Assembly (NCBI GenBank): GCA_013415695.1
Contig: JAAEEP010000001.1
Span: forward strand, 68,621-132,620
From: Methanomassiliicoccales archaeon
GTDB taxonomy: Archaea > Thermoplasmatota > Thermoplasmata > Methanomassiliicoccales > JAAEEP01
Length of the DNA: 64,000 nucleotides
Direction of reading: 5' to 3'
Under the pieces are notes generated by a model. The model did not search any database. It was not told the DNA's origin and saw nothing but the letters and a program-made list of their open reading frames with translations. Of the stretch, positions 8,863 through 47,976 are shown piece after piece (within the stretch, counting starts at the first letter, position 1; the number at the start of each line of letters is the position of its first letter). The position numbers were made by a program, and so were the translations under genes.

Positions 8863-8863
8863 C

Positions 8864-10801: not shown

Positions 10802-10805
10802 TACC

Positions 10806-12311: not shown

Positions 12312-12312
12312 G

Positions 12313-13755: not shown

Positions 13756-13764
13756 ATAAACCCC

Positions 13765-13793: not shown

Positions 13794-13906
13794 TACATCA
13801 TCAGGACAAAACATCCCTCAATACAGCGGATTACTGGCTTCACTTTCTCCTCATACGGCTGATAGTACTCTAGTAACGGTTAAGTACGGATTCATCATTA
13901 GGCGAA

Positions 13907-14875: not shown

Positions 14876-14954
14876 TCTGGATTTGCTCAATATTCCCAAG
14901 AGGATGACGATGCTTGATCCTTGTTAGGATGGATTGGATCATGGAGATTCGGAT

Positions 14955-16037: not shown

Positions 16038-16050
16038 GATCATCGGGATT

Positions 16051-16578: not shown

Positions 16579-16580
16579 AG

Positions 16581-20438: not shown

Positions 20439-21032
20439 ACACCCCCGAATTATCTTGCTCTAACCTCCATGAAGTTTATCAGATATGAATCTTATTGGAA
20501 TCAAAAGAAATCGTTCGAAAATTACATACATCTTGTTTTCAAGGTCGGCTGTTGTACAAGGAAGAAATATTGGGTCGTGAAACGGTAATAGCATCTGGTT
20601 ACGAAATTCAAATCAAATGAGTCTAATAAGAATCTGTTGCTCAATAATATATTAATAGGCAATCAATCGTGGAGTTCTATGAGGGTGTGAATTAACTTGA
20701 AGTTCAATGAGTTTGAAACTAGTGTTCCCGATTGTACTTCTTACAATGAAGACCACCAGGCCAGCACAAGATCCATTCATTCGATTCAAGTGCGTTTTCG
20801 ATTCAATAATTCACTAACAACACCCCATTTGACAGGCAGGGAGAAACCATTCTCCCATTTACACCTAGTGATTACTTAAAAGAATCATTCAAGGAATGAT
20901 TTGACCGCTGATGGAGGCGGGAACTTGTTGAAGAGCAGAGTAAATCGTATCGAGAAGTGTGGAGTTGACCTTGCTAAGATTTATCACAGTCCCAGGAATC
21001 AAGACAATTATTTGGCTTCGCGCCCCCCGGGG

Positions 21033-22169: not shown

Positions 22170-23704
22170 CCTCAGGAGGATCCACCAAGCAAAGGGATAG
22201 GCACCTCTGGGAGAGATTCCGTCCCATTATCGACGAGGAACTTTGCATTAATTGTGGAAAATGCGCAAAGGAGTGCAGTTTCGGTGCTTTAGATTTCAAG
22301 GAGAAGAAGGTCAGATACCAGGGAGGATGTGTAGCCTGCGGAAGGTGTATGTCATTCTGCCCAACCAGCGCTATAATGGTGAACGATGTACCAAACATAT
22401 TCCCACATCATCCCTGGTTCACAGAGCGTGACAGGAGAGCGATCGCAGCCCAGGCCCGGAGTGGTGGCGTACTTCTTTCTTCCTGCGGAACCGACCTTCC
22501 TTACAGATCGATTTATGATGACCTCCTACTGGACGCGGCCCAGGTGACCAATCCATCGATCGACCCATTGAGGGAGCCAATCGAGACCAGGACATACCTG
22601 GGAAGACGGTCGGGGAAGCTCTGCATCGAGAAGCGCGGGAAGAAGTATGAACTTGTCTCGGGGGATGGAGCGATAGTCTCTATGGACATGCCAATAATGA
22701 TAGGTCACATATCTCTTGGGTCAGTGAGCTACAATACCCAAAAGGCTCTTTTCACCGCTGCAGAGCATTTGAACATCGTGGCAGGTTCTGGAGAAGGAGG
22801 GCTTCATCCAGACTTCTTTAATTTCGCACACAGAATCAACAGTGAAGTAGCAAGTGGTCGATTTGGAGTCACCCCCGAGTACTTGAAACGTGTGGCCGCC
22901 GTAGAGATAAAGATCGGGCAAGGTGCCAAGCCAGGTCACGGAGGACATTTACCCGGCGAGAAGGTCACAGAGATGATCTCCCAGACACGGATGATCCCCG
23001 AGGGTACGGATGCTCTATCGCCCTATCCACATCACGACATCTACAGCATAGAGGATCTCCAGCAGCTTATTTCAGTACTGAAGGAGGCCACTGATTATCA
23101 GATGCCTGTGGGTGTCAAGGTAGCGGCTGTACACAATATCGGGGCAATCGCATCAGGTATAGTCAGGGCTGGGGCGGACTTCATGACCATCGATGGTTTT
23201 CGGGGTGGAACTGGTTCCGCTCCAAGGGTTATTAGGGACCATGCTGGCATTCCTATCGAGGTGGCGATTGCCACTGTTGACCAGAAGCTTACAGAAGAAG
23301 GACTTAGGAACAAGGTTACTCTCTGTGCAAGCGGTTCAGTAAGATCCTCAGCGGACATGATCAAGATAATAGCACTGGGAGCAGACGTGGCCAGTGTTTG
23401 CACGGCGGCCATGGTTGCCATGGGATGCAGGGTTTGCCAACACTGCCATATGGGCATCTGTGCATGGGGAATTGCGACTCAGAAGGTCGAGCTAGCTTCT
23501 AGGTTGGATCCCAAGATCGCCGCAATGAGCGTGGTGAACCTGTTCAGGGCCTGGAACGAGGAACTGAGGGAGGTCTTGGGAGCGATGGGTATCGATTCTG
23601 TTGAGAGCCTTGTAGGAAACCGAGATCGCCTCAGATATGTCGGTCCCAATCCCAAAATGGCGGAAGTGATGGATGTTAAGCATGTGGGTGAGGGCTGGGG
23701 GTGA
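22166..23704 (+). CDS. archaeal glutamate synthase, FMN/Fe-S subunit with N-terminal 2x[4Fe-4S] ferredoxin domain
   Basis: 512 aa. CINCGKCAKEC and CVACGRCMSFCP, then the GltB FMN domain (KIGQGAKPGHGGHLPG, DGFRGGTGSAP). Confidence 0.9.
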   Translation: MTSGGSTKQRDRHLWERFRPIIDEELCINCGKCAKECSFGALDFKEKKVRYQGGCVACGRCMSFCPTSAIMVNDVPNIFPHHPWFTERDRRAIAAQARSGGVLLSSCGTDLPYRSIYDDLLLDAAQVTNPSIDPLREPIETRTYLGRRSGKLCIEKRGKKYELVSGDGAIVSMDMPIMIGHISLGSVSYNTQKALFTAAEHLNIVAGSGEGGLHPDFFNFAHRINSEVASGRFGVTPEYLKRVAAVEIKIGQGAKPGHGGHLPGEKVTEMISQTRMIPEGTDALSPYPHHDIYSIEDLQQLISVLKEATDYQMPVGVKVAAVHNIGAIASGIVRAGADFMTIDGFRGGTGSAPRVIRDHAGIPIEVAIATVDQKLTEEGLRNKVTLCASGSVRSSADMIKIIALGADVASVCTAAMVAMGCRVCQHCHMGICAWGIATQKVELASRLDPKIAAMSVVNLFRAWNEELREVLGAMGIDSVESLVGNRDRLRYVGPNPKMAEVMDVKHVGEGWG

Positions 23705-24530
23705 TCTCGTGAACCACAATCTTGCCAAGAATAGACACAACGGTCCCAAGGTAGTGACAAAGGAGGAGGTGACCATAAGAGCTGATGGTAGGGATGGCCT
23801 CGGTCATCCCCTAGATTATCACGTCCTCAACCAGATGATCAAGGATGAGATGGCAGCTGGGAGGAAGCTCATCCGTGTGGAGGGTGTCCTTGGACAACGT
23901 TACATCGGTGCAACGGCATCCAGAAATGACCTCAGAATCGAGGTATATGGGACACCTGGTAACAACCTGGGAGCTCTTCTGAACGGCACCAATATCGAGG
24001 TCTTTGGTAATGGCCAGGACCTTACAGGTAACACCATGAATTCTGGGAGAATCATCGTCCATGGTAGTGTAAGCGATGTTACCGGGCTCGCTGCTAGGGG
24101 TGGTGAGATCCTCATCAAAGACAGCGCAGGATACCGTACTGGAATCCATATGAAGGAATTCAAGGGTTCTGGTCCCTCAATTATCATTGGCGGTAGAGTT
24201 GGGGATTACCTAGGGGAATACATGGCCGGAGGTACCGTGCTGGTACTCGGTTTAGAGATAACTGACAGGCCCATAATAGGTCAGCACATCGGCGCAGGAA
24301 TGCACGGCGGGAGGATGTACATAATGGGCGATGTGAGAATCCAGCAGCTTGCACCAGGGGCCTCGCTTAAGGATATCAACCTTAGCGATAGGAAGGAGAT
24401 CGAAAGGCTGCTGGTCAACTATGAAGACACATTCGGTGTGACGGTGAATGTTGATTGGCGCAAATTCAGAAAAATAGTCCCCACTAGCAGCAGACCTTTT
24501 GGAGGCTATTACGACAAGACCATGATCTAA
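23673..24530 (+). CDS. archaeal glutamate synthase, GXGXG-repeat (GltB C-terminal) subunit
   Basis: 285 aa (alternative GTG start at 23709, right after the upstream stop). Repeated beta-helix GxGxG units (VYGTPGNNLG, VFGNGQDLTG, VHGSVSDVTG). Confidence 0.85.
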   Translation: MLSMWVRAGGDLVNHNLAKNRHNGPKVVTKEEVTIRADGRDGLGHPLDYHVLNQMIKDEMAAGRKLIRVEGVLGQRYIGATASRNDLRIEVYGTPGNNLGALLNGTNIEVFGNGQDLTGNTMNSGRIIVHGSVSDVTGLAARGGEILIKDSAGYRTGIHMKEFKGSGPSIIIGGRVGDYLGEYMAGGTVLVLGLEITDRPIIGQHIGAGMHGGRMYIMGDVRIQQLAPGASLKDINLSDRKEIERLLVNYEDTFGVTVNVDWRKFRKIVPTSSRPFGGYYDKTMI

Positions 24531-30145: not shown

Positions 30146-30865
30146 TCACTCGGTAATAACCTGGGTTGCGCTGAACTTGCCGTCGTTGAACAACAGCGAG
30201 AAATATCCGGTCTTATGGTTGGTGCTCCTAAGCTTGACCGCTCTGATTCTGCGCTGGATGTCAGTCTCCCCGATCTCTTGCAGCTTGAGGCTGACCACCC
30301 CATCAGCGAGATATCCCTCATCGTACTTCTGCTCGAACATCCTATCGGGCTGATTCTCGGAGACAAGGAGGGAAGTAACCCCTAGATTCCTTAGCCACTC
30401 AAAGAGATAGAACAGCTCTGATCTCCGGTTCTCGTTCATCTGGGCAGCCATTTCCAGTACGTCGAGTGAATCGACGACCAGGATCTCGTACCCCAGGCTG
30501 TGTCTTAGGCTGTCGGCATACATCTTGAAAACCTGGAGCCAGGTACCCTTGGCACTCAGCTGTGTCAGGCTCTTCCTGATGAGCCCAAGGTCTAAGACAT
30601 GGACGTATTCCTTTGCCCTCTCGTCATCCATTCCCATGGCCGCCATCTGCTGAAGCAGGTTCTCCCTTGACTGCTCAAGTGTCATGTAAACGCTAGGTAT
30701 GCGATTCTCAAGTGCATTCTGATAGAGTATACTGTAGGCAAGGGACGACTTCATGGTGCCTGGAGTGCCTGTAAGCAGCACAACCTGCCCCTTTGGAATG
30801 CCTCCCTGCAGATTCTCATCAAAATTCTGTATGTAGGTTCGAAGCCTTTCAATCTGCAGATCCAT
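30146..30865 (-). CDS. single-domain KaiC/RecA-like ATPase (paralogue 3)
   Basis: 239 aa. GGIPKGQVVLLTGTPGTMKSS (deviant P-loop), TLEQS, and Walker B ILVVDSLDVLE. Confidence 0.85.
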   Translation of the reverse strand: MDLQIERLRTYIQNFDENLQGGIPKGQVVLLTGTPGTMKSSLAYSILYQNALENRIPSVYMTLEQSRENLLQQMAAMGMDDERAKEYVHVLDLGLIRKSLTQLSAKGTWLQVFKMYADSLRHSLGYEILVVDSLDVLEMAAQMNENRRSELFYLFEWLRNLGVTSLLVSENQPDRMFEQKYDEGYLADGVVSLKLQEIGETDIQRRIRAVKLRSTNHKTGYFSLLFNDGKFSATQVITE

Positions 30866-30959
30866 CTCCTCCCAAGTACTAATGTTGAGTGGCTGAGCTG
30901 TTAAGAGGCTTGTAGCTACTTAATTCTTTCTTAAAGGACTGGCCCTGAGGAAAAGGACC

Positions 30960-32477
30960 CTATTCAAAGGTCGATGCAAGCGGTAAATGAAGCTGGAAGG
31001 TCCTCCCATCAAACAAGAAAGAGAAGTAGCGCGGGTCTATATCAACACTCCTCATTTTGGGTATTCTAATCCAACGCTGGACCTTATCTCTGTTCTCATG
31101 CATCAGGAGCTCTATTGCCCCATCAGAAAGATAGAGTTCTCCCTGACTGCTCTCGAGTAGTTCCTGAGGAGACTTTTCGGATACCAGGAATGTGGTTATT
31201 TCCATATCACGGAACCATTCGAACAATTCTGCAAGATCTTCCCGAGAAAAGACGAACTCTGACATGGCCTTGAACGACTCGAGCGAATCTAGTACGAAAA
31301 TATCGAAATCTTTGGCTTTCTTGACATTCTCGACATATCTCATCAGTATGCTCCGCCAGTCGCCTTCCTCACCGGCCATTGCCTTGCGGAGGTCTACCAT
31401 ATCCACCAAAATCAAATTCTCCCTTGACTCATCTCGTGAAAGGCCAAGTCGTTCCATCTGCCTTAGGATTGAAGCCCGGTTCTGCTCAAGCGAAAAATAC
31501 ATTCCACGAATTCCCTGCTTGGCTGCACAGTGGTGCAGGATGTGGTAGGCTAGTGAGGATTTCATCGAGCCGACTGATCCGTTCACGAGGATGACATGTC
31601 CTCTTGGTATCCCACCCTTGAGAATACGATCAAGCCGCTCAATATGAGTGGGAATCAACTCCCCATTTACCTCGCCCTGGATTCCAATGCCAATCTGTTT
31701 GTCGATTTCGCTGAAAGCCTCCTGCTTCAGCTCATCAATTTGCTTCTGATCGCTGAGATCTTCCTCTTTCCGCTGCCCCTCCAACGCTCGATCTCTAATC
31801 ATATTGCGGAGCTCGATCGTCTTCTTCATCAATTCTGATTCGGTCACGCGGAACTGCTCCTCCTTGAGGGCTAGGTTCTCCATTTCATCAGAGAGTGCCT
31901 CCTTCAACTCCAATTTGAGCCGATCTCGTTCCTTATCTAGAACCTGCTGGAAGTTCTCCTGTATCTGGAGGAGTTTCTCAAGATCCCCAGGTGTCAACTC
32001 ATCCCCCTCCTTCACCATGTCGAAACGAGTCATTACCTGTTTCCACTGTGAAAGGGTGTTCGAAATCTGTTCTAGGTCACACTCACGCTCTCTAAGGGCC
32101 TTCTCCTTCTCGGTTAGAGACGCTTCCTCATTCTGCAGTTGCTCCATGGTCTTCTCTAGGGCCAATGTATCATTCTCAATTTCTTCCAAGGACCCGAGTA
32201 GTTCGTTCTCGCGATCATTGAGTTCCTTCTCACGGCGGAGGAGATCTTGTTCCCTTCGTTCGAGTAACTTTCGCATCCTCGAGACAGTGACATACTCCGA
32301 ATCGTTAAGACGGACAGAGGTTTCCCTCTGGCTAAAAACGCTTTCCAGTGTAATCTTTGGTGCCTCTCCATATTCACCTTGGGCTTCCTTCTCTCTTAGT
32401 ACCTCTCCACATCTACCACACTGGATATCGTTGGGTCTGACGCCCGCCCCGCACCTAGGACACTCAAATCGAGACAT
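30960..32477 (-). CDS. zinc ribbon + coiled coil + KaiC/RecA-like ATPase
   Basis: 505 aa. CPRCG...CGRCG, then about 200 aa rich in E/K/L/R/Q heptads, then GGIPRGHVILVNGSVGSMKSS, SLEQN and IFVLDSLESF. Confidence 0.85.
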   Translation of the reverse strand: MSRFECPRCGAGVRPNDIQCGRCGEVLREKEAQGEYGEAPKITLESVFSQRETSVRLNDSEYVTVSRMRKLLERREQDLLRREKELNDRENELLGSLEEIENDTLALEKTMEQLQNEEASLTEKEKALRERECDLEQISNTLSQWKQVMTRFDMVKEGDELTPGDLEKLLQIQENFQQVLDKERDRLKLELKEALSDEMENLALKEEQFRVTESELMKKTIELRNMIRDRALEGQRKEEDLSDQKQIDELKQEAFSEIDKQIGIGIQGEVNGELIPTHIERLDRILKGGIPRGHVILVNGSVGSMKSSLAYHILHHCAAKQGIRGMYFSLEQNRASILRQMERLGLSRDESRENLILVDMVDLRKAMAGEEGDWRSILMRYVENVKKAKDFDIFVLDSLESFKAMSEFVFSREDLAELFEWFRDMEITTFLVSEKSPQELLESSQGELYLSDGAIELLMHENRDKVQRWIRIPKMRSVDIDPRYFSFLFDGRTFQLHLPLASTFE

Positions 32478-32490
32478 CTCAACACCAGGG

Positions 32491-33204
32491 TCACTCGCTG
32501 ATTACCTTGGTCACCTGGAACTTTCCTCCGTTGAAGAGCAAGGAGAAGAAGGAGGGATCATGATTTGTCTCTCTCATCTTCACACAGCGGATCCTCCGCT
32601 GAGTCTCCACCTCTCTGACCTCCTGCATCTTCAAAGCGATTACTCCGTCTGAGAGATATCCTTCATCGTAGGATCCCTCAAGAATCCTTTCTGGGGATGC
32701 TTCAGAGATGAGAAACGCCGTTGATTCCAGACCTCTCAGCCACTCGAAGAAATAGAAGAGTTCGGTCCTCTTGACCCCCATGTCTGCCATGGTTTCAAGC
32801 ACATTAAGGGAATCAATGACTATGAGCTCATACTCGAGGCTTTCGCTGAGGTTGGACAGATAGGATTTGAATACCTCCATCCAGGAACCTCCTGCCGATA
32901 TCTCCTTCAGCTTCTTCCTGATCAGTGAGAGATCCAGGACATGAAGCTTGTCCTTGACCTCCTCCGTGGACATTCCCATCTTCTCCATCTGGCGTAGCAG
33001 GCTGTTTCGGGACTGCTCCAGAGTCACGTAGATGCCGACTTTGTTCTCCCTTATTGCCTGGTTGTGAAGAATGTAGTATGATATCGATGATTTCATAGTT
33101 CCTGGAGTGCCAGACACCAAAACGATGTGGCCCCGTGGGATTCCGCCCTCCAAGACCTTATCGAAGCCCTCGATGTACGTCTTGAACCGTTGCTCCTCGC
33201 TCAA
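32491..33204 (-). CDS. single-domain KaiC/RecA-like ATPase (paralogue 1)
   Basis: 237 aa. GGIPRGHIVLVSGTPGTMKSS, TLEQS and LIVIDSLNVLE. Lies 13 nt upstream of the 505-aa gene. Confidence 0.85.
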   Translation of the reverse strand: MSEEQRFKTYIEGFDKVLEGGIPRGHIVLVSGTPGTMKSSISYYILHNQAIRENKVGIYVTLEQSRNSLLRQMEKMGMSTEEVKDKLHVLDLSLIRKKLKEISAGGSWMEVFKSYLSNLSESLEYELIVIDSLNVLETMADMGVKRTELFYFFEWLRGLESTAFLISEASPERILEGSYDEGYLSDGVIALKMQEVREVETQRRIRCVKMRETNHDPSFFSLLFNGGKFQVTKVISE

Positions 33205-33308
33205 TTCAAACCACTTCCATTAATGTATAGCAGTTCCCCGCTTGTGCCAATTCATGTTATGGAGGTACAAAAAGATATGGTGCGGGTTCTCAACGAGTGA
33301 TACTAACC

Positions 33309-34010
33309 CTATATGTCTCCCCTTATCACTACCCGGCGGACATATTGTTTAGCAAGCTCCGCCATGTTATGGATCCGTTCTATGGGATAGGGGTCGATCT
33401 TGGAGAGCCTGCCGTCAAGGGTGGTACCCGGCCGGAACTGCTGCAGGGCGTACTTCCTCGCCCCGCCGATGAAGGCGGCGATGGACTCTACATCCTTCTC
33501 CTTGATAATATGAGGCACAATGGTGGTCCTGAACTCATGCTCAATTTCCGAATCCATAAGAATGGAAATGGAACGCTTGATGTCCTCAAGCGGAGCCTGC
33601 ACCCCACATGCATCGTCGTACCGGTCATCAAGAGGTCCTTTTATGTCCATGGCAACGCTCTCCAACAGGCCTGAATCGATTAGATCTAAGAGCATTGAGG
33701 GATTGGATCCATTGGTATCCAGCTTGACCCTCAATCCAAGGGCAGATAGGTCTCCAATGAGATCAGGCAGATCGGAGTGAATTGTGGGCTCCCCTCCTGT
33801 AATCACCACCCCATCCAAGAAGTCGGAGTTCTCTTCCAGATAGAGCATCATAGAACCATGATCGACCTCGGGAACGCTTCCTGGCGACAGTACCAGTTCC
33901 CGGTTGTGGCAGAAAGGGCACCGAAAGTTGCATCCAGGAAGGAATATGACAGAAGAAACACGACCGTCCCAATCCACCAGTGAGGTCTTTATGAAGCCCA
34001 CGATCCTCAT
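33309..34010 (-). CDS. radical SAM activating enzyme (NrdG/PflA-type)
   Basis: Start at Met8 (MRIVGFIKTSLVDWDG), cluster motif CNFRCPFCHN, about 233 aa. Confidence 0.85.
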   Translation of the reverse strand: MRIVGFIKTSLVDWDGRVSSVIFLPGCNFRCPFCHNRELVLSPGSVPEVDHGSMMLYLEENSDFLDGVVITGGEPTIHSDLPDLIGDLSALGLRVKLDTNGSNPSMLLDLIDSGLLESVAMDIKGPLDDRYDDACGVQAPLEDIKRSISILMDSEIEHEFRTTIVPHIIKEKDVESIAAFIGGARKYALQQFRPGTTLDGRLSKIDPYPIERIHNMAELAKQYVRRVVIRGDI

Positions 34011-34150
34011 AATCAACCTTGAGGGTGTCACCCCGTATTAATCATGTTCCTTGCGAGGATGTAACATCGAGATGTGAGCCAGTGAACTGTGGCGGAACAA
34101 ACTTTTTCAGTGAGTAAACCCGTTGCAGCTGGAAAGGGTTCGAGGGCGGT

Positions 34151-37093
34151 TTGATGTCTGAAGAGGTGGCGGTCATCGGTGGTGGCATTTCGGGTGTCCA
34201 AGCTGCACTGGACTTGGCCAAAGCTGGAGTCTTGGTCCACCTCATCGAAAGGGGGCCAAGCCTCGGGGGGCATATGGCTCAGCTGGACAAGACATTTCCA
34301 ACCAACGACTGCTCCGCATGCATACTATCCCCCAAGCTTGTCGAGGCACATCGTCACCCCTTGATCAGGGTTTGGACCCTGACAGAGGCAGTTGACCTGC
34401 AAGGCAGCCCCCCAGATCTCACTCTCAGGGTTAGGGTCAAACCTCGTTTTGTCAGAGAGGACAGGTGTGTTGGATGTGGAGAATGTGCGAACAAGTGTCC
34501 CTCATCTGTGAAGAGCGAGTTCGAGCTTGGTCTATGCAGAAGAAAGGCCATATACATACCCTTCGCGCAGGCCGTTCCATTGAAGTATACCATCGATCCT
34601 GAGCACTGCCTCAAGATCAATGAAAACAAGTGTGGAAACTGCCAGAAGACATGTCCAGCTGACGCAGTAGACTTCGGCATGGAGGAGAGGGAAGAGAAGT
34701 TAGAAGTTGGTGCGGTCATCGTATCCACAGGCTTCGATCAGTTCGACCCAGAGAAAATATCTCCATATCACTACGGCGAGAATCCGAATGTGATGACAGC
34801 ACTGGAGTTCGAGAGGATCCTCAGCCCCTCGGGCCCCACAGGCGGTCACCTCGTGACGAATGATGGGTCCACTCCTAGGAGGCTCGTCTTCGTCCAGTGC
34901 GTGGGTTCCAGGGATAGGAACTACTGCGAACACTGCTCGAGGTTCTGTTGTATGGCTTCCCTCAAGCAGGCGATGATTGCCCTTGAACACGAGCCATCGA
35001 TCGAGGAGGTGACCGTGTGCTATATGGACCTGAGGAGCTATGGCAAGGACTTCGACAGGTACCGGGACCATGTCATGGGAAAGGGCATAAGGTTGATCAG
35101 GGGTAGGCCATCTGAGGTTAATTTAGATCCCCTGGGAGTAAGGATAGAGGACGTGGAGGGAGCTTCGATCAAGGATATCGAAGCAGATATGGTTGTTTTG
35201 GCCATGGCAGCAATACCTTCGAGGGGAATTGGTGAACTGGCGGATGCCCTTAATATCGAACTGGACGATGGCGGCTTTATTAAGACCATGGCATCTAGCG
35301 ACGGACCCCTGGCCACCTCTAGAAGGGGCGTGTTTGCTGCAGGATGCTGCACCGGTCCAAAAGACATACCGGATAGCGTCTGTGAAGCCTCAGCGGCGGC
35401 TTCCTTGTCGCTCACTCTTTTACCTAATAGAAAACCAAAGACCTTGAAGAAGCCCAAAGTCCGTGATGTGTCTGGCGAGATCCCAAGGACAGGTGTGTTT
35501 GTATGCAGATGCGGGACGAATATCGCCTCGACAATTGATGTTCCGGCGGTTGTGGAGGCCGCTTTAAAACTAGAGGGTGTGGCCTATGCTGAGGAGAACC
35601 TCTTCACATGCTCCGAGGCAGCTCTGGATGAGATGGCCACCAGGATACGAGACGAAGGTATCAACAGAGTCGTGATAGCTGCCTGCACACCTCGTACCCA
35701 CGAGCCGATCTTCAAGGACACCTTGGAGAAAGCAGGCATTAACCCTTATCTGCTCGAGATGGCCAACATCAGAGATCAGTGCTCATGGGTTCACCAGGGG
35801 CAACCAATTGAGGCGACAAGGAAGGCCATAGACCTTGTCAAGAGCGCAGTGGCCAAGGCAAACCAGCTTGAGCCATTGCAGACCCAGACCGCAGAAATCA
35901 TCAGGGAGGCAGTTGTTGTGGGAGGTGGACCGGCAGGTCTCTCCGCCGCGAGGGATATGTCCAAGCAGGGTTTCCGAGTGCACTTGATCGAATCGCAAAA
36001 CGAGCTTGGAGGAAGGATGGATGAGATCCACACGTCGAGTGAATTCGGGATCGATCGTATATCAGCTACATCCCTCCTTGAAGGTCTTGACGTTGATATT
36101 TCAAGAAACATCAAGATCGAATCAATCTCTGGATCCGTAGGGGACTTCAATATCGTCCTTAATGATGGTCGAGAGATCAAAGCAGGTGCAATAATCTTGG
36201 CCCCCGGGGCGGATCTGCCTGACTGCAGCGATAAAGAGGACAGAACGATAACCAGTCTCGAACTGGATAGGATGCTTAGAGAAGGAACACCTCTGCCCAA
36301 GAGCGTTGCTTTCGTGCAGTGCGTTGGAGTGCGTAATGAGAGATTTGGCTGTTCCCGATTCTGCTGCAAGAAGATGTTGGAACAGGCCAAGACGCTCGTC
36401 TCTATGGGAATGACGGTGAGCGTGCTACATAAGGATATCATGGCATTTCAGAAGGAAGGCGAGGCACTCTACAGGGATGTCTCAGAAAAGGGTGTGAGAT
36501 TCTACAGGATAGACGGTGAGCCTGACATCTCATCAGAAAATATATCTTTCCAATCTGTCACCGATGGCAACATCACCATTCCAGTGGAGATGGTAATAGA
36601 ATCTATTGGGATGATTCCCTCTGAATCCAACAGGGATCTCAGCCTCCAGCTCAAAGTCCCGTTGAGCAGGGAAGGGTTCTTCCTGGAGAAGCATCAAAAG
36701 CTAGCACCTGTGGAGTTCGCGGTTGACGGGATATTTATGGCTGGATGCGCCCAATATCCTAAGGATCTTTTTGAGAGCATGGTTCAGGGATCGGCTGCAG
36801 CGGCCAAAGCAGCAGGTCTTCTTTCAATGAAAGTTATAACGACCCCGGGCCAGATTTGCGTCGTCGATGAGGAGAGGTGTAGAGGTTGCGGCGAGTGTGA
36901 ATCACTTTGCAGCTACGGAGCTGCCCGATTGAGAGAGATCTCTGGAAAACAGGTATCCCATATAGAGGAGAAAATGTGCAAGGGATGTGGTCTCTGTGCG
37001 GTTTCATGCCCAAGCAACGCCATCGAAGCCCGAGGGTTCACGATCGAGCAGATCGACGCCCAAATCGATGCACTTCTGGGGGCTGAGCGATGA
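34151..37093 (+). CDS. hdrA: heterodisulfide reductase subunit A-like flavoprotein, tandem-fused (980 aa)
   Basis: Two FAD folds (VAVIGGGISG, AVVVGGGPAG). Two VQCVG...CSRFCC motifs. One DCSACILSPK. An inserted ferredoxin (CVGCGECANKCP, CGNCQKTCP). An internal HdrA N-domain-type segment (VFVCRCGTNI...AACTPRTHE...RDQCSWVH). A C-terminal ferredoxin (CRGCGECESLC, CKGCGLCAVSCP). Confidence 0.9.
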   Translation: MMSEEVAVIGGGISGVQAALDLAKAGVLVHLIERGPSLGGHMAQLDKTFPTNDCSACILSPKLVEAHRHPLIRVWTLTEAVDLQGSPPDLTLRVRVKPRFVREDRCVGCGECANKCPSSVKSEFELGLCRRKAIYIPFAQAVPLKYTIDPEHCLKINENKCGNCQKTCPADAVDFGMEEREEKLEVGAVIVSTGFDQFDPEKISPYHYGENPNVMTALEFERILSPSGPTGGHLVTNDGSTPRRLVFVQCVGSRDRNYCEHCSRFCCMASLKQAMIALEHEPSIEEVTVCYMDLRSYGKDFDRYRDHVMGKGIRLIRGRPSEVNLDPLGVRIEDVEGASIKDIEADMVVLAMAAIPSRGIGELADALNIELDDGGFIKTMASSDGPLATSRRGVFAAGCCTGPKDIPDSVCEASAAASLSLTLLPNRKPKTLKKPKVRDVSGEIPRTGVFVCRCGTNIASTIDVPAVVEAALKLEGVAYAEENLFTCSEAALDEMATRIRDEGINRVVIAACTPRTHEPIFKDTLEKAGINPYLLEMANIRDQCSWVHQGQPIEATRKAIDLVKSAVAKANQLEPLQTQTAEIIREAVVVGGGPAGLSAARDMSKQGFRVHLIESQNELGGRMDEIHTSSEFGIDRISATSLLEGLDVDISRNIKIESISGSVGDFNIVLNDGREIKAGAIILAPGADLPDCSDKEDRTITSLELDRMLREGTPLPKSVAFVQCVGVRNERFGCSRFCCKKMLEQAKTLVSMGMTVSVLHKDIMAFQKEGEALYRDVSEKGVRFYRIDGEPDISSENISFQSVTDGNITIPVEMVIESIGMIPSESNRDLSLQLKVPLSREGFFLEKHQKLAPVEFAVDGIFMAGCAQYPKDLFESMVQGSAAAAKAAGLLSMKVITTPGQICVVDEERCRGCGECESLCSYGAARLREISGKQVSHIEEKMCKGCGLCAVSCPSNAIEARGFTIEQIDAQIDALLGAER

Positions 37094-37506
37094 ACTTCGT
37101 CCCAAGAGTGGTGGCATTCTGCTGCAATTGGTGTGCCTATGCTGGAGCTGACCTGGCAGGGGTTTCAAGGTGCCAATACACCCCGGAGACAAGGATTATC
37201 CGGGTGATGTGTTCAAGTCGGGTGGATCCTGCCATGGTTCTTAGATGCTTCGAACTGGGGGCAGATGGGGTAATGGTACTTGGGTGCCACATCGGTGACT
37301 GTCATTACTTAAAGGGGAACGAGGAGGCCGAGAAGAGAATGGAGAGGACCCGGGAGATTATGGAGCTTCTTGGTATCGATGAACGGCGCTTGCTGCTTCG
37401 TTGGATCTCAGCTTCCGAGGGTGAAAGATTCGCCCAGACTGCCGATATGTTCGTTTCCACTCTGAAGGAATTGGGACCACTGAAGGAGGAACAGAATGAG
37501 GATTGA
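37090..37506 (+). CDS. mvhD: MvhD-like (methyl-viologen-reducing hydrogenase delta subunit family) [2Fe-2S] protein
   Basis: 138 aa with FCCNWCAYAGADLAG and VMCSSRVD. ATGA overlap with hdrA. Confidence 0.85.
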   Translation: MNFVPRVVAFCCNWCAYAGADLAGVSRCQYTPETRIIRVMCSSRVDPAMVLRCFELGADGVMVLGCHIGDCHYLKGNEEAEKRMERTREIMELLGIDERRLLLRWISASEGERFAQTADMFVSTLKELGPLKEEQNED

Positions 37507-38614
37507 TGACAGAGCTAGGCAGCTGGGCGTTTCCGGATGCGTCACCTGTGGCCGTTGCACATGGTCATGCCCGATCTCGAGAAGACCGGGAGATTTCTCA
37601 CCTCGAACCCTGGTGGAAAGATTTCTCCGAGAGGGACAGGTGCCTGAGGACAAGGGCATCTGGAGCTGTACCAACTGCGCCATGTGCAGTGAGGTCTGCG
37701 ATTCGGGCGTGCGATTTCATGAGTTTATCAGGGATCTGAGGACTGAGATTGTCAATGATGTTCCTCCTGAGATGACGCATGGAGGCATCATTCCCTATGT
37801 CAGGAGGCTGACCTCCATGCCTCATATCTCACCAAGGAAGAATACATGGATAACTGATTCCATGGAACTGGATCCTGAATCTGGAACGATGTTATTCGTT
37901 GGTTGTATTCCCTACTTCGATGTAATGTTCAGAGATTTCCGTGCGGATCTCCTCGAAATACCACGAGCCGCAGTATCACTCCTGAATGCCATGGAGGTGA
38001 GACCAGCCTTGATGGAGGAGGAGAGATGCTGTGGACATGATGCCTATTGGATAGGTGATATGATAACATTCGAAAGCCTTGCTAGACTCAACATAGAGGC
38101 GATCGAGGAAAGGGGAATTGAAAGGGTTGTATTCACCTGTCCAGAAGGATATTGGACCTTCAAGGAGCTGTACCCACGTCTAAATGGCCCCCTGGGATTT
38201 GAAGTCAAGAGCCTCACGGAACTTCTAGCAAATGCCATCGAAGATGGATCGGTCGTCCTTGAGAGAAGTGAGAAGAAGATAACATTCCAGGACCCTTGCC
38301 GCCTAGGCAGGTACTCCAGCATAATTGACGAGCCTAGGTCGATAATCGATGCCCTGGGAAGGAGAATGGAAATGGGTCGGACAGGACGACTGTCCGCCTG
38401 CTGTGGCCACTCAAACTGGGTGAATTGTGACACATATACCAGGGATTGGCAGCTGGAAAGGTTGGGGGAGGCAGAGTCTACGGGCGCTGAGGTTCTGGCC
38501 ACCGCCTGCCCGAAATGCCTGATACATCTGACCTGCGCCCAGCGCAACTTGTCCGAAAAAGGAATCAAGATCGAGGACATCCATGTGATGGCCGCGTCTG
38601 CTCTAAAACTCTGA
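37496..38614 (+). CDS. HdrD-like Fe-S / CCG-domain disulfide reductase (HdrC-HdrB fusion type)
   Basis: 372 aa. CVTCGRCTWSCP and CTNCAMCSEVC, then two CCG-type regions (ERCCGHD, SACCGHS, ACPKC). 11-nt overlap with mvhD. Confidence 0.8.
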   Translation: MRIDDRARQLGVSGCVTCGRCTWSCPISRRPGDFSPRTLVERFLREGQVPEDKGIWSCTNCAMCSEVCDSGVRFHEFIRDLRTEIVNDVPPEMTHGGIIPYVRRLTSMPHISPRKNTWITDSMELDPESGTMLFVGCIPYFDVMFRDFRADLLEIPRAAVSLLNAMEVRPALMEEERCCGHDAYWIGDMITFESLARLNIEAIEERGIERVVFTCPEGYWTFKELYPRLNGPLGFEVKSLTELLANAIEDGSVVLERSEKKITFQDPCRLGRYSSIIDEPRSIIDALGRRMEMGRTGRLSACCGHSNWVNCDTYTRDWQLERLGEAESTGAEVLATACPKCLIHLTCAQRNLSEKGIKIEDIHVMAASALKL

Positions 38615-38619
38615 TCTCA

Positions 38620-38805
38620 TCACTTCTCGTCTTCTATTATCACGATGGACTTCCCTTCGACTTTCCTCTTCATGTGACCACCAGGGCCGCCCCTCTCAGC
38701 ACGGGCTTTTTCCATACATTTCTCATCATCGCAGACGAATGCTGCGAAAGCGAAGTGTACTGCCCGTCTCCCGCAGAACTGACATTTCTGCTCCTCAATC
38801 TCCAT
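38620..38805 (-). CDS. small 4-Cys zinc-ribbon protein (hypothetical)
   Basis: 61-aa ORF with CQFCG...CDDEKC and a K/E-rich tail. It occupies the 272-nt gap between the hdrD-like and EF-Tu-like genes on the opposite strand. Confidence 0.45.
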   Translation of the reverse strand: MEIEEQKCQFCGRRAVHFAFAAFVCDDEKCMEKARAERGGPGGHMKRKVEGKSIVIIEDEK

Positions 38806-38886
38806 CAGACCTTCATGGAAGCGGTCGCATATCTTCTTTCCCCCTGTGGCAATCTTTATCTATATCGCCCTTGTACCCCTGGGGCA

Positions 38887-39852
38887 ATGGCTAACCTCAA
38901 TGTAACGGTGGTCGGACCACCAGGTTACGGAAGGGACATAGGGAAGAAGGGTACCGACAGCGACATCACATTCTACAATCTTAAGAGGGGGGAAGATACA
39001 GTCACGCTGATGGAGCCAATACGGTATCCAGAGAGGTTAGCTCCGTTGTTCTATTCGGCTTCCATGGCCCACTTCGCCATCATTGTCGTGGAGAAGATCG
39101 ACCACATCTTTGGCGAAGCTGTTCTAATGCTCGATAGCTGTGGAGTAGGGAAGGGGATCATCGTCCTCCGAAACTTCATCGTTCCGGAACAGGTTGCTCC
39201 CTTGATCGTCGGGACTGTCGCTGAGAACTATGCTTTCGTCGAGGACGATCCAATAGAGATAAGGGGAAGGTTGATCCAGGAGGTATCTTCCTTCCTTCCC
39301 TCGAAGCCAGAGGAATCTGAAGAAGGAAGTGTTCCGGTTGACCATCACTTCAATGTGAAAGGTGTGGGCACGGTCGTCCTTGGCTCTGTTTCCCAGGGAA
39401 CGATAAGGAAGCACGATAAATTGAGGGTGTTGCCCGGTGAGGATATAGCAATCGTACGCTCCATTCAGAAACACGATGATAACTTTGATTGGGCTGTCAA
39501 GGGAGAAAGGGTCGGGATGGCCTTGAAGGGATTGGACGCAGATACGCTGGACAGGGGTTATGTCCTGTCTAGTGATGGATCTCTGAGGGTCGACCAACAC
39601 CTGGAAGTCAATGCTGAGCTCATACGTTTCTGGCCAGATCCAATCAAGGAGGGGATGGTTCTCCACATAGGTCACTGGATGCAGTTCGTTCCATGCAAAG
39701 TTGCATCAGTCCACATCGATGACAACTGGAGACGGCCAAGGCTATCGCTGACTCTGGAAAAACCGCTTATTCACCCCCAACAATCAAGGATTGTGCTTAC
39801 CTATCTGGACGGGGGTAAGCTCAGAGTCGTTGGTACCGCCAAGCCACTTTAA
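38887..39852 (+). CDS. EF-Tu/aIF2-gamma-like protein with degenerate GTPase motifs (pseudo-GTPase)
   Basis: ATG at 38887, with the TATA-like TTTATCTATAT centred 27 nt upstream. 321 aa. The G domain has GPPGYGRD in place of GxxxxGK[ST], and EKID in place of NKxD. Clear EF-Tu domain-2 beta-barrel (VKGVGTVVLGSVSQGTIRKHDKLRVLPG). Confidence 0.75.
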   Translation: MANLNVTVVGPPGYGRDIGKKGTDSDITFYNLKRGEDTVTLMEPIRYPERLAPLFYSASMAHFAIIVVEKIDHIFGEAVLMLDSCGVGKGIIVLRNFIVPEQVAPLIVGTVAENYAFVEDDPIEIRGRLIQEVSSFLPSKPEESEEGSVPVDHHFNVKGVGTVVLGSVSQGTIRKHDKLRVLPGEDIAIVRSIQKHDDNFDWAVKGERVGMALKGLDADTLDRGYVLSSDGSLRVDQHLEVNAELIRFWPDPIKEGMVLHIGHWMQFVPCKVASVHIDDNWRRPRLSLTLEKPLIHPQQSRIVLTYLDGGKLRVVGTAKPL

Positions 39853-39939
39853 TCTAGGAATTTCTGAGAGTGCGCTAGCCACCTGTCAGCGTTGTCGGAC
39901 AGAAACTGGTATAAGTACAGCGGATGATTTCATCCAGTC

Positions 39940-40431
39940 GTGAAGATATCTTCTATTGACACAGCGCTCAAGGAACTGCTTGACTCCATTGACTCGACTG
40001 GGGAGCTGGAAAAATGCCATCAGTGCGGCCAGTGCTCCTCCATTTGCCCCAGCTATAGGAATGGCGGGATTAGACCCCGTGAGATTATGGAACTTGTCGT
40101 TATTGGTGCCATTGACCCCGCCAGTGATGAATCGATCTGGCAATGCACAATGTGTAACAGCTGCACCGAGAGGTGTCAGCTTGGCGTTGATCCTGCCAGC
40201 ATCATCAATGTGCTGAGAAACCTTGCCGCTGCTAGAGGTAATGTTCCGGAACACTTCGTGCAAGAGGCTAGATTGTTCAAGAACACTGGGCGCTCGTTTC
40301 CCATTACAGTCCTCACAAAGAAGATGAGGGAAGAGATGGGACTCGAGAGTCTGGAGATCACAGGTTCGGCCAAGGATGACCTTGCTAAGCTCATTGCTGC
40401 AACTAGTTTGGGGGGCCTGGACCTTGAATAA
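39940..40431 (+). CDS. hdrC: heterodisulfide reductase subunit C
   Basis: 163 aa with a GTG start. CHQCGQCSSICP and CTMCNSCTERC. TATAAGTA centred about 27 nt upstream. Confidence 0.85.
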   Translation: MKISSIDTALKELLDSIDSTGELEKCHQCGQCSSICPSYRNGGIRPREIMELVVIGAIDPASDESIWQCTMCNSCTERCQLGVDPASIINVLRNLAAARGNVPEHFVQEARLFKNTGRSFPITVLTKKMREEMGLESLEITGSAKDDLAKLIAATSLGGLDLE

Positions 40432-41251
40432 GCATTACTTGTTCAGAGGATGTCTGATACCCACGAGACTGCCGTTCCTTGAGAAGGCATCGATTATGGC
40501 TCTGGAGAGGATGGGTTTCGAATTCGACCTACTTCCCGATGCCACCTGCTGCATGGAGCCGATCGGGCTCAGATCGATGGCCCTCGACACCTGGAAGGTC
40601 ATCGCGGCCAGGATGTTGGCAGTGGCGGAAGCAGATGGACGGGATGTCGTTACTCTGTGCAATGGGTGCTTCATGTCATTGAAGGAGGCGGCCTATCTGC
40701 TTTCCAAGGAAGATGAAAGGGATGAGGTTAACCAGATCCTAGCAGAAATCGGTATGAAATACAATGGTACCACCAATGTGAAACACCTTCTAGAGGTAGT
40801 GGTCGAAATTGGAGAGGACCGCCTCAGGTCGATGGTCACTTCTCCTTTGGAGGGGATGAGGGTAGCGATTCACCCCGGATGTCACCTAGTGAGGCCATCA
40901 AGTGTTCTGGGTGTCGAAAATCCGTTCTCTCCTGAATCGCTCTTAAGTGTGACCGAGTGGCTGGGAGCAGAGGTGGTTTATGCTCAGGATTGGCCAGGTT
41001 GCTGCGGCGGAGGACTCACAGGAGTCAACGAAAACGTTTCCAGCGGGATATTGAGAGAAACGGTTGAAGAGTTCAAACTGATGGGGGCGAATTACATTGT
41101 CACTCCTTGCCCATTCTGTTTCATTCAATTCGACCTGAAGCAGAAGGAAGGTCTTCCAGTAATCTATCTCGGAGAACTTCTCGCACTAGCACTTGGGGCA
41201 TCAACCGAGGATATTGGAATCAAACATCACCGTATGAGATTGGATCTCTAG
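40376..41251 (+). CDS. hdrB: heterodisulfide reductase subunit B (two CCG domains)
   Basis: Start uncertain: ATG at 40376, or TTG at 40424 overlapping the hdrC stop. YLFRGCLIPTR, DATCCMEP, HPGCH and WPGCCGGG motifs. Confidence 0.85.
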   Translation: MTLLSSLLQLVWGAWTLNKHYLFRGCLIPTRLPFLEKASIMALERMGFEFDLLPDATCCMEPIGLRSMALDTWKVIAARMLAVAEADGRDVVTLCNGCFMSLKEAAYLLSKEDERDEVNQILAEIGMKYNGTTNVKHLLEVVVEIGEDRLRSMVTSPLEGMRVAIHPGCHLVRPSSVLGVENPFSPESLLSVTEWLGAEVVYAQDWPGCCGGGLTGVNENVSSGILRETVEEFKLMGANYIVTPCPFCFIQFDLKQKEGLPVIYLGELLALALGASTEDIGIKHHRMRLDL

Positions 41252-42093
41252 GGTTCCTCCAAGGACTTCACCATAGTTATGTCCAGGCTGAAGTGGGCGG
41301 CCCTTGCCGAGTGGGTTATCCAACCCATGGAAATAATATCTGCATTCTTTGCAAACTCAGGTGCGGTTTCCTGTGTTATGCCTCCGGAAACCTCCACTAG
41401 AACATTCTCATTGAGCTTCTTGACCGCAAGATAGGCCAGCTCGACCTTCTCTGCAGGCATGTTGTCCAGCATCACAATGTCGGCACCAGCCTTCGCGGCC
41501 TCCAACGCTTGTTCGACTGCTTCTACCTCCACCTCGATCTTCTTGGAGAATGAAGCCTTCTTCGCCATGGCAACCGCCTGTGTTATTGATCCCACGACCT
41601 TCAAATGATTATCCTTGATCATGATGGCATCGTCCAGACGGAACCGGTGCGGGTCCCCTCCACCCATTATGACCGCTTTCTTCTCAAAGAAACGGAAACC
41701 TGGAGTGGTCTTTCGAGTGGCGGCGATTCTGACGTCCTTATTCACCTTCTTGCAGACCTTATCAATCTTATTCGTGGCGGTCGCTATACCGCTCATCCGC
41801 ATCAAGAAATTCAGGGCGAGACGCTCACCGAGCAGGATCTTCTTCAAAGGGCCATCTAAAACCAGGATATGCTCCCCCTTGGATATCTCGTCGCCATCCC
41901 TAGCCATCGGAAAAGTGGATACACCCAAGAGGTTGAAGATCTCGATCGCCTCTTCAAGCCCAGCCAGGATGCAATCCTCGTTCGATTGGATGCGGGCACT
42001 ACCCACCTCGTCTCGGACAAGCAAATCGCTGGTGATGTCACCGAAACCAACATCCTCTTCGAGATAGTCCGCTATCCTGCTCATATTTACCAA
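41248..42093 (-). CDS. nadC: nicotinate-nucleotide diphosphorylase (quinolinate phosphoribosyltransferase)
   Basis: 281 aa of the NadC family (ATRKTTPGFR, IMLDNM, EVSGGIT). Confidence 0.9.
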   Translation of the reverse strand: MVNMSRIADYLEEDVGFGDITSDLLVRDEVGSARIQSNEDCILAGLEEAIEIFNLLGVSTFPMARDGDEISKGEHILVLDGPLKKILLGERLALNFLMRMSGIATATNKIDKVCKKVNKDVRIAATRKTTPGFRFFEKKAVIMGGGDPHRFRLDDAIMIKDNHLKVVGSITQAVAMAKKASFSKKIEVEVEAVEQALEAAKAGADIVMLDNMPAEKVELAYLAVKKLNENVLVEVSGGITQETAPEFAKNADIISMGWITHSARAAHFSLDITMVKSLEEP

Positions 42094-46956: not shown

Positions 46957-47976
46957 ATGGGAGTGTTATTCAGACGCAAGCGTCAAGAACAGGATGAGGC
47001 CACCTATTCACTCATCCACAGAGGAGTCTACCGAGTGCCCGACTTCTACGAAGACGACGAGGGCAAGAGGTTCAAGGGTGCGAAGGTGGCCTATAGTTTC
47101 TGGAGCGCCGTTAGATACACTTTCTTCCTTTCATTGCTGCTCTGGTGGTTGCCCATCTTCGGGCAAATGATCGCCGGATATGTTGGAGGAAGAAGAGCGG
47201 GCACGCCCTGGAAGGGAGTGGCTGCAGCACTGATTCCAGTCACGGTATTCTTCGTCGTCATGATGGCAATGGATATGGGTTATCTACCCACTGAGTTCTT
47301 CGGGATCAGTCTTTCACCTGCTGCCCTGCTTGGGTCAATCGCCGCCGAAATTCCTCTAATAGAGCCGTTCCTGAACTTCAGCGTCATGTACCTCGATTCG
47401 TTCCTGGATGCGATCCAGGCAACTACTTCTCTTCGTTTGGACAGCTATATCATCACTATCGCTTTCGCATACATTGGTGGGATTCTTTCCGAGCAGACCA
47501 GGAGGGAGATGGATTATGTTTCTAAGACCGGTGGTCCAAAGACCACTGTCGTAGTTGAAGGCACACACACCTCCCCCCAGGAAGTCGCCTCTTCCATACC
47601 CTCCTGGTCAGCTCATTTGCTTCAGCCTAGGAGGAGAACCACCGCCCCCATGAGTTTCGAGGAAATGACCCCCCTCGGTGCCAGGGCCTATGCGGATTAT
47701 CTACCAGAGCAGACTATCCAGCCTACCCGACGTGCAATCCACCGGGAGGAAGGGGTAGGCGACATCGACCCCCAGGAACTGAAGCTACTTCAAGCTAGGA
47801 ATCAAAGCATGATCAAGAACCAGAAGAAAGTGGAGAGGAAGGTACACGGTAAGAACAAAAGCGTACCCTTCGTCAAGAAGGGGAGCAGGAAACGCCTGGT
47901 CAAAACTGGGCAATCAGAGATACCGAAAGCTCCTGAGGAGCAGCTTCAGCGCAATGGAGACTGGGAGTTCATCTGA
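46957..47976 (+). CDS. hypothetical membrane protein with basic disordered C-terminal tail
   Basis: 339 aa. About 4 TM helices in the N-terminal 190 aa, and a K/R/Q-rich tail. Confidence 0.6.
   Translation: MGVLFRRKRQEQDEATYSLIHRGVYRVPDFYEDDEGKRFKGAKVAYSFWSAVRYTFFLSLLLWWLPIFGQMIAGYVGGRRAGTPWKGVAAALIPVTVFFVVMMAMDMGYLPTEFFGISLSPAALLGSIAAEIPLIEPFLNFSVMYLDSFLDAIQATTSLRLDSYIITIAFAYIGGILSEQTRREMDYVSKTGGPKTTVVVEGTHTSPQEVASSIPSWSAHLLQPRRRTTAPMSFEEMTPLGARAYADYLPEQTIQPTRRAIHREEGVGDIDPQELKLLQARNQSMIKNQKKVERKVHGKNKSVPFVKKGSRKRLVKTGQSEIPKAPEEQLQRNGDWEFI

Follow-up and report, generated by a model that had tools for sequence, protein, structure and literature searches.

The window studied here, a 64-kb stretch of contig JAAEEP010000001.1 from a Methanomassiliicoccales archaeon, contains a cluster of heterodisulfide reductase (Hdr) genes. 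We put at about even the chance that this cluster is an order-wide conserved Hdr neighborhood of the Methanomassiliicoccales, consisting of two separately promoted operons that encode a BamEFD-like module and a canonical HdrBC. The first operon, hdrA-mvhD-hdrD-like, is translationally coupled and would give a soluble module similar to BamEFD, in which a type II HdrA forms a single-chain pseudo-dimer with one bifurcating flavin adenine dinucleotide (FAD). MvhD would be supplied with electrons by a donor module whose genes lie at another place, most likely MvhAG, and the HdrD-like protein would accept the high-potential electron. The second operon, hdrC-hdrB, would provide the canonical reductase of the heterodisulfide of coenzymes M and B (CoM-S-S-CoB), working with this HdrA or with a paralogue of it. 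Ferredoxin would take up the low-potential electron and be re-oxidized by the input-less Fpo-like complex, as in the accepted scheme for Methanomassiliicoccales. The gene identities are backed by Pfam, NCBIfam, and PDB sequence searches. Together with the open reading frame (ORF) map, these searches bore out all the genes, overlaps, and spacings listed in an initial annotation made from the sequence.

Two thioredoxin reductase (TrxR) domains are found in the single HdrA polypeptide, which contains two GxGxxG motifs and two Pyr_redox_2/FAD stretches and matches NF040770 (HdrA2) with 882 bits. The domain order is TrxR1 with an inserted 2x[4Fe-4S] ferredoxin domain, the HdrA N-terminal cluster domain, TrxR2, and a C-terminal 2x[4Fe-4S] domain. 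Residues 4-369 align to residues 144-510 of 5ODC_A (the FAD domain together with the ferredoxin domain inserted in it), residues 443-609 to 2-168 (the N-terminal cluster domain and the start of the second FAD domain), and residues 813-975 to 487-649 (the end of the FAD domain and the C-terminal ferredoxin domain). The 40 cysteines fit about seven [4Fe-4S] clusters. Judging from the motifs, only the N-terminal flavin domain keeps the hallmarks of bifurcation, and one bifurcating site is predicted. Indeed, TrxR1 has all the features looked for in such a site, namely GGGISG, FPTNDCSAC, CCMASLK, the Cys cluster, and the inserted ferredoxin domain; the Lys of CCMASLK (CC+5) is equivalent to Lys409 when counted along the alignment. 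TrxR2 reads CCKKMLE, without the Lys, and has neither FPTNDCxxC/CxxC nor the inserted ferredoxin domain. It is degenerate, with a probably structural role. The asymmetry between the two domains is kept in the archaeal orthologues aligned.

A long HdrA with two FAD sites beside mvhDGA has already been described in Methanomassiliicoccales (Borrel 2014), and type II HdrA is a defined class in methane-metabolizing archaea (Microbiol Spectr 2025, PMC12054007). The locus resembles this class in the two TrxR domains per chain and in the co-location of MvhD, HdrBC, and (sometimes) HdrD. The consensus type II cluster also includes FdhB and an inactive molybdopterin protein as F420H2 donor (PMC12054007), neither of which is present here. 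Moreover, both TrxR domains of the class keep the key bifurcation residues according to the same study, whereas TrxR2 of the window lacks the Lys and the CxxC. Compared with the HdrABC-MvhAGD complex (5ODC and relatives), whose parts are matched in PDB with E values from 1e-47 to 1e-178, the shared elements are an HdrA FAD domain that has the CxxC and the Lys, the two ferredoxin domains of HdrA (inserted and C-terminal), the MvhD adaptor, HdrC, and an HdrB with two full CCG motifs. The window differs in three respects: its HdrA is a tandem within one chain instead of a homodimer, neither mvhG nor mvhA adjoins the genes, and a gene for an HdrD-like protein directly follows mvhD.

A matching architecture is found in BamDEF of class II benzoyl-CoA reductase, where cryo-EM shows BamE as an HdrA dimer joined into one polypeptide, which carries clusters E1-E7, a bifurcating FAD (Lys280) in TrxR1, and in TrxR2 an FAD that does not bifurcate; BamF is an MvhD adaptor (bioRxiv 10.64898/2026.04.10.717634). 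In that structure BamD, an HdrD-like subunit, hands its electron to an electron-transferring flavoprotein (ETF), its heterodisulfide pocket is filled, and its distal non-cubane cluster is altered, as in most homologues (bioRxiv 10.64898/2026.04.10.717634). The window genes likewise predict two HdrA units in one polypeptide, bifurcation at the FAD of TrxR1 only, about seven [4Fe-4S] clusters, an MvhD-type adaptor, and an HdrD-like subunit with one altered non-cubane site, the resemblance being one of architecture. The MvhD of the window differs in being short and without selenocysteine, and the gene order is not that of the Bam genes. A genuine Bam cluster was ruled out: the window contains neither BamBC (the AOR-type tungsten enzyme) nor BamGHI (the HydABC-like NADH/ferredoxin input), and the homologous bacterial loci are of the HdrL/GltD type.

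MvhD matches PF02662 (E 8.5e-53) and, about equally well, ElpC (8rvu_F, E 6e-49) and MvhD (5odc_D, E 4e-48) in PDB. Adaptors of this type join differing donor modules (Mvh, Fdh, Elp) to HdrA. The HdrD-like protein is made of Fer4_8 and two CCG domains, i.e., a 2x[4Fe-4S] part fused to two CCG domains. Among 24 homologues, all eight cubane cysteines and nine of the ten CCG cysteines are invariant. In the clade of the window, CCG motif 1 ends in CPEG, and the fifth Cys of a complete HdrD motif is absent; the HdrD-like proteins of other Methanomassiliicoccales have CPEC at this place. Decay was ruled out as the source of this loss. CPEG or CAEG is kept in all the bacterial and ANME-1 (anaerobic methanotrophic archaea, group 1) homologues recovered except one (L099), and this near-universality argues for a conserved alternative. 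The AlphaFold2 model of the protein, with a predicted local distance difference test score (pLDDT) of 91, has mycobacterial EtfD (9OJN) as its best fold match (TM-score for the query, TMq, 0.77), and HdrB chains match the CCG half only. EtfD is also the best PDB sequence match (E 9e-24, 22% identity). The EtfD proteins are membrane proteins of 742-1042 aa, whereas the protein found here corresponds to the soluble domain only. The match is suggestive but not decisive, since no other fused chain of that type has been solved. With a four-Cys CCG motif 1, and with the nearest solved relative (EtfD) and the analogue BamD both being electron-transfer proteins, we infer that the HdrD-like protein is an electron-transfer protein or a second high-potential outlet rather than a proven second heterodisulfide reductase. 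Its description as an alternative disulfide-reductase module in the initial annotation was not sustained.

For the second operon the assignments follow the canonical pattern. HdrC (TIGR03290, E 1.8e-28; Fer4_8) has 2x[4Fe-4S], and HdrB (TIGR03288, E 1.4e-66) aligns to the HdrB of PDB entry 8rvu_b from residue 7 (E 6e-55) and contains the complete CCG motif twice, in line with the pattern Cx31-39CCx35-36CxxC; the first reads C10-x31-CC-x35-CxxC. The TTG at 40424 is most likely the start of hdrB and the ATG at 40376 an unlikely one, because with the former the first Cys of CCG motif 1 is retained and the alignment to the solved HdrB runs from residue 7.

The TATA-like boxes that had been noted upstream of the EF-Tu-like gene and of hdrC were confirmed (Table 1). 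Both are kept among relatives with 60-90% protein identity, in which the flanking DNA has diverged. The box TTTATCTA is invariant in the window and in the loci L018, L022, and L020, and the core GGTATAAG of the hdrCB box TATAAGTA is invariant in four lineages with divergent flanks. This conservation of separate boxes supports the division of the locus into two transcription units, hdrA-mvhD-hdrD-like and hdrC-hdrB.

Table 1. Features of the hdr locus and its flanks; coordinates are positions in the 64-kb window.
Feature	Position	Strand	Remarks
hdrA, type II (tandem)	34151/34154-37093	+	980 aa from TTG, 979 aa from gene-caller ATG
mvhD, [2Fe-2S] adaptor	37090-37506	+	4-nt ATGA overlap with hdrA
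HdrD-like (BamD/EtfD-like), 372 aa	37496-38614	+	11-nt overlap with mvhD
Zn-ribbon ORF, 61 aa, four Cys	38620-38805	-	inside the 272-nt gap 38615-38886
TATA-like box of EF-Tu-like gene, TTTATCTA	38855-38862	+	
EF-Tu/SelB-like gene, 321 aa	38887-39852	+	
TATA box of hdrCB operon, TATAAGTA	39910-39917	+	
hdrC, 2x[4Fe-4S]	39940-40431	+	GTG start
hdrB, 275 aa from TTG	40424-41251	+	8-nt overlap with hdrC
Upstream flank: three KaiC-like ATPase genes and a radical SAM gene	30146-34031	-	synteny marker, not part of the enzyme
Downstream flank: quinolinate phosphoribosyltransferase (QRPTase)	41248-42093	-	marker of the conserved block

Scanning one genome per species with an alignment of the HdrD-like proteins, followed by tblastn of the window proteins on 101 loci, revealed that the arrangement is not particular to this organism. 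About 30 Methanomassiliicoccales species contain the block in the order three KaiC-like genes, radical S-adenosylmethionine (SAM) gene, hdrA (where present), mvhD, hdrD-like, a variable insert, Zn-ribbon gene (minus strand), hdrC, hdrB, QRPTase (minus strand), and beta-CASP (minus strand). Among these species are Methanomassiliicoccus sp. UBA6, QR_Bin.16, and the predicted methanogen Ca. M. armoricus MXMAG1, with hdrA absent from the block in Methanomassiliicoccus sp. and Ca. M. armoricus MXMAG1. A tandem hdrA occupies the site in 12 loci (L018, L020, L022-L029, L033, and L038). The earlier observation of one HdrA-MvhD core beside two CCG-type modules stands, as a feature common to about a dozen species. 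In about 20 species hdrA is missing there and mvhD comes right after the radical SAM gene (e.g., L021/L045); in cultured relatives hdrA is placed with mvhDGA elsewhere (Borrel 2014). The insert sites between hdrD-like, Zn-ribbon, and hdrC are highly variable. Of the synteny of hdrA-mvhD-hdrD-like with the EF-Tu-like gene, for which a check had been suggested at first, the block proved to be conserved order-wide, but the EF-Tu-like insertion is limited to the clade of the window.

Several further features of these loci were observed. Synteny of the three tandem KaiC-like genes and the radical SAM gene with the hdr block is seen in almost all of the Methanomassiliicoccales loci examined. In several Methanomassiliicoccaceae, a second, divergent hdrA-mvhD-hdrD-hdrD-hdrC-hdrB-like cluster sits between the hdrD-like and Zn-ribbon genes (L027, L028, L030, and L031; e.g., L028, 12206-17019). 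Outside the order, the triad of tandem hdrA, mvhD, and hdrD-like is found without hdrCB on dozens of contigs from Desulfobacterota, Anaerolineales, and ANME-1. At L060, the only bacterial locus with annotated flanks, GltD/NfnB-like NAD(P)H modules of the HdrL type accompany it. This locus, from a metagenome-assembled genome (MAG) of a deltaproteobacterium (5292-16896), encodes a 1399-aa GltD-fused HdrA (HdrL type), MvhD, the HdrD-like protein, a second HdrA that is apparently interrupted, another MvhD, and a GltD/NfnB-like protein, with a sigma-54 two-component system in its flank. By tblastn, a similar gene order is seen at about 40 other bacterial loci.

The species represented in the window is Methanomassiliicoccales MMA1/MMA2, a methanogen of mangrove sediment (Zhang et al. 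2020, PMC7302380). MvhD and the neighboring proteins compared are identical on JAAEEO010000005.1 of GCA_013415715.1, the 99% complete assembly of Methanomassiliicoccales archaeon MMA1. In Table S2 of Zhang et al. (PMC7302380), McrA and McrB are listed for both MMA1 and MMA2, with four to five copies of HdrA and four each of HdrB and HdrC. Two HdrD genes of the KEGG type are on scaffolds other than that of the window, a second cluster hdrC-hdrB-x-x-hdrA is on MMA2 scaffold_37, and the gene numbers on MMA2 scaffold_13 are nuoA 71, fpoD 74, hdrA 106, hdrC 110, and hdrB 111 (Table S2, PMC7302380). The gene order on scaffold_13 agrees with that of the window. Transcripts of mcr and methyltransferase genes were detected in that study (PMC7302380). 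The status of methanogen rests on this literature, the mcr genes being outside the window, and a reading as one of the non-methanogenic basal Thermoplasmata (Zinke et al.) was ruled out, the source MMA1/MMA2 carrying mcrA/B. Given that mcr genes have been published for this methyl-reducing methanogen, the substrate to be expected is CoM-S-S-CoB. The special circuit with a donor and a disulfide that could not be read from the sequence, as suggested initially, is not supported in view of this obvious substrate and of the further hdrA/B/C sets and KEGG-type hdrD genes in the genome. It had been accepted from the start that canonical mvhAG or fdhAB elsewhere with a second orthodox hdrABC copy, or an EF-Tu-like/Zn-ribbon insertion that was not conserved, would speak against such a circuit, and to a large extent this is what we found.

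Essentially every ORF of at least 90 aa in the 64 kb was annotated. Among these ORFs there are no Mvh donor subunits (MvhA/MvhG) and no Frh, Fdh, or Mcr, in agreement with the earlier report that mvhAG, frhB, fdhAB, and mcr are missing from the window. The sources on the donor differ. The text of PMC7302380 claims HdrABC/MvhADG in the MMA MAGs, but its Table S2 is without MvhA, MvhD, and MvhG. That table also misses MvhD, which is demonstrably in the window. In a 2024 pan-genome table, the mvhA and mvhG orthogroups are scored as present in the genus of the window (G.5).

Several observations weigh against the two-operon reading given at the outset. No donor module lies within the 64 kb, and the KEGG Orthology (KO) table of Zhang et al. 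has no MvhA/G for either near-complete MAG (Table S2, PMC7302380). The assembly of HdrA, MvhD, and the HdrD-like protein is a prediction from their genes, and the roughly 20 species that keep mvhD-hdrD-like with hdrA elsewhere may use another partner for the pair. The HdrB and HdrC scores are under the NCBIfam equivalog cut-offs. Finally, the fold match of the HdrD-like protein discriminates poorly, EtfD being the sole solved fused HdrC+HdrB-type chain, and with nine of ten CCG cysteines in place disulfide reduction by this protein is still possible.

This last point leads to the core idea of the initial annotation, in which one HdrA-MvhD core docks alternately to two true disulfide reductases, HdrBC and the HdrD-like protein, acting on the same or on two disulfides. 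In its favor, the genes of the two modules lie next to that for the sole bifurcating flavin site, their co-location is conserved order-wide, and nine of the ten CCG cysteines and all eight cubane cysteines are invariant in 24 sequences. We nevertheless consider this unlikely: CPEG is common to bacterial homologues that have no methanogenic heterodisulfide, the equivalent site of BamD is blocked and its cluster modified, KEGG-type HdrD genes are encoded elsewhere, and hdrA is off-locus in most species.

A distinctly unlikely variant of the BamEFD-like reading is that MvhD-HdrD-like and the type II HdrA form a second high-potential branch of the BamFED type, one flavin feeding either CoM-S-S-CoB through HdrBC or, through the HdrD-like protein with its four-Cys motif, a non-disulfide partner. 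If true, an ETF-like carrier or the Fpo-like complex without input module could play the part of this partner, and the branch would supply the missing physical link in the energy conservation of Methanomassiliicoccales.

The mvhD-hdrD-like pair could also sit on the donor or adaptor arm, feeding HdrA or exchanging electrons with another complex and leaving HdrBC as the sole heterodisulfide reductase. MvhD paralogues are indeed co-encoded with donor modules (mvhD-mvhGA, fdhAB-mvhD, and elpABC, e.g., ElpC), EtfD-type CCG proteins exchange electrons with flavoproteins, and the coupling of mvhD to hdrD-like persists where hdrA is elsewhere. Such a placement is improbable, however, as BamD binds the TrxR1 side and not the MvhD arm in the one solved analogue, and no candidate reductant for the CCG protein is evident in the window.

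Even more improbable is the wider inference of the initial annotation, by which mvhD-hdrD-like would act as soluble head to the Fpo-like complex, whose operon is 20 kb upstream, giving a ferredoxin:heterodisulfide oxidoreductase with MvhD as the connector. The Nuo/Fpo-like operon (3772-13755) encodes subunits A, B, C, D, H, I, J, K, L, M, and N only, and is thus without any input or output module; it shares one MMA2 scaffold with the hdr block, and an association of the Fpo-like complex with HdrD has been proposed in the literature. The window contains both elements of that proposal, a protein of HdrD architecture and an 11-subunit Fpo-like operon without FpoF/O. The HdrD-like gene, however, is coupled to mvhD and hdrA and not to fpo genes, has no hdrE beside it (as would be expected for HdrDE), and is separated from the Fpo-like operon by about 30 genes of unrelated content. 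In addition, the published KO table assigns hdrD to two KEGG-type genes on other scaffolds and not to this gene (PMC7302380), and at L060, the sole bacterial locus with annotated flanks, where GltD domains that bind NAD(P)H are fused to the triad, no complex of this kind was seen.

Adjacency by inherited synteny without joint function, the hdrA copy being redundant with hdrA-mvhDGA or hdrCB..hdrA elsewhere, would fit a genome with four to five hdrA, four hdrBC sets, and a second hdrC-hdrB-x-x-hdrA cluster, the variable inserts between hdrD-like, Zn-ribbon, and hdrC, and the loss of the hdr genes of the block in Ca. Methanoplasma, but the translational coupling of hdrA-mvhD-hdrD-like and its conservation over two domains of life argue for a functional unit and make this reading the most improbable of those considered.

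In comparison with what is known, the locus is a modest variant of a known system and not a new kind of system. Published accounts already exist of all the component families (the EF-Tu-like one among them), of the organism with its Hdr copy numbers, and of the long HdrA. For three features we found no description in the literature: that mvhD and hdrD-like form a conserved pair, that this pair has a CPEG/BamD-like character in a methanogen, and that its neighborhood with hdrCB is invariant. Methanomassiliicoccales are important methane producers in gut and sediment, and to our knowledge their Hdr complexes, the basis of energy conservation, have never been purified. The proposed link between the Fpo-like complex and HdrD is still hypothetical. 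Tandem HdrA, the MvhD paralogue, and the BamD/EtfD-like CCG protein form a coupled unit conserved from methanogens to sulfate reducers; adjoining hdrCB throughout the order, this unit is a candidate for a second point at which electrons leave or enter the bifurcating enzyme.

The Zn-ribbon ORF on the opposite strand is a real gene restricted to the order. Its hallmarks are CxxC...Cx4C and an invariant RGGPGGH (ERGGPGGH) motif. It is found at the block position in about 30 loci with 51-89% aa identity, usually divergent and 100-180 nt upstream of hdrC, even when 1.6-7.5 kb from the hdrD-like gene. Only 32 cluster representatives were detected in 1.84e9 proteins, and of the 19 matches in a set of 5.8 billion proteins one is from Ca. 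Methanoplasma and none has a functional name or Pfam domain. Similarly, the window protein has no Pfam match, and its model (pLDDT 73) gave no significant fold match. In Ca. Methanoplasma the gene adjoins QRPTase and beta-CASP, and the hdr genes are absent there. A role as an Hdr-specific accessory was ruled out by this persistence beside QRPTase without hdr genes; the gene is therefore a member of the syntenic block and not demonstrably an Hdr factor, and its product is probably not an Hdr subunit. The Zn-ribbon gene is thus conserved in the order, but a strict link to Hdr is not supported.

The EF-Tu-like protein aligns over residues 10-308 to MM1309 of Methanosarcina mazei (PDB 3wnb, E 1e-30), which is similar to SelB and EF-Tu, binds Cys-tRNA(Cys), and has no GTPase activity (PMC4329189). 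The three-domain EF-Tu homology and the replacement of the catalytic His by Tyr (RYPE vs. SYPK) are shared with the MM1309/aSelBL family, in which the P-loop Lys is often Arg and no GTPase activity is expected. Unlike MM1309, the subfamily of the window is about 25 aa shorter and has neither the Walker Ser/Thr nor helix alpha-1 nor the guanine-binding Asp. A motif G-P-x-G-Y-[AG]-[KR]-[DE] replaces Walker A in this subfamily; the window protein reads GPPGYGRD with helix alpha-1 deleted, where the family has the P-loop GxxxxGR-T/S, and LRNF in place of TRSD (Asp103), leaving it without the guanine-nucleotide residues. "Pseudo-GTPase", as it was first called, is a fair description of a protein that has no canonical Walker A, helix alpha-1, or NKxD Asp.

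By its distribution, the EF-Tu-like gene is a clade-specific passenger insertion, and a role in the Hdr locus is not supported. At the hdr site it is found only in L018, L020, L022, and, fragmented, L029. In the last of these (MAG D1M05_42, 11168-12273) the gene is broken over three frames, either as a pseudogene or by an assembly error. Homologues with 57-60% identity are found in Methanoculleus, Methanothrix, and others in non-hdr contexts. A function as an Hdr partner was ruled out, these orthologues being beside mtr/mcr or unrelated genes (Methanoculleus, Methanothrix, and the archaeal MAG GCA_030604065.1). In two Methanoculleus loci (L009, 8001-16972; L013, 8001-10499) the orthologue is convergent to the mtr operon, and in L009 mcr comes after mtr.

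Within the Fpo-like operon, the FpoI/NuoI homologue (7255/7330-8070, plus strand; 246-271 aa) has two 2x[4Fe-4S] modules and about double the normal length of NuoI. The doubled protein may be a ferredoxin-docking extension of the input-less complex. In addition, nuoJ/fpoJ is split into two overlapping ORFs (8071-8337 and 8318-8563, plus strand), comparable to the entry 'fpoJ N' in Borrel 2014. By the published gene numbering, a further hdrA copy is located 15 genes upstream of nuoA (PMC7302380). About 5-9 kb upstream of the window (L102, 1272-5244), we found genes for formate-tetrahydrofolate ligase, FolD, a formate/nitrite transporter, and a DUF3786 protein. An archaeal split glutamate-synthase-like trio (GATase_2; Glu_synthase with N-terminal 2x[4Fe-4S]; GXGXG) is placed between the Fpo-like operon and the hdr block at 20901-24530 (plus strand). 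Finally, two ORFs, at 46957-47976 (plus strand, 339 aa) and 57238-58776 (minus strand, 512 aa), are public gene calls without a Pfam match.

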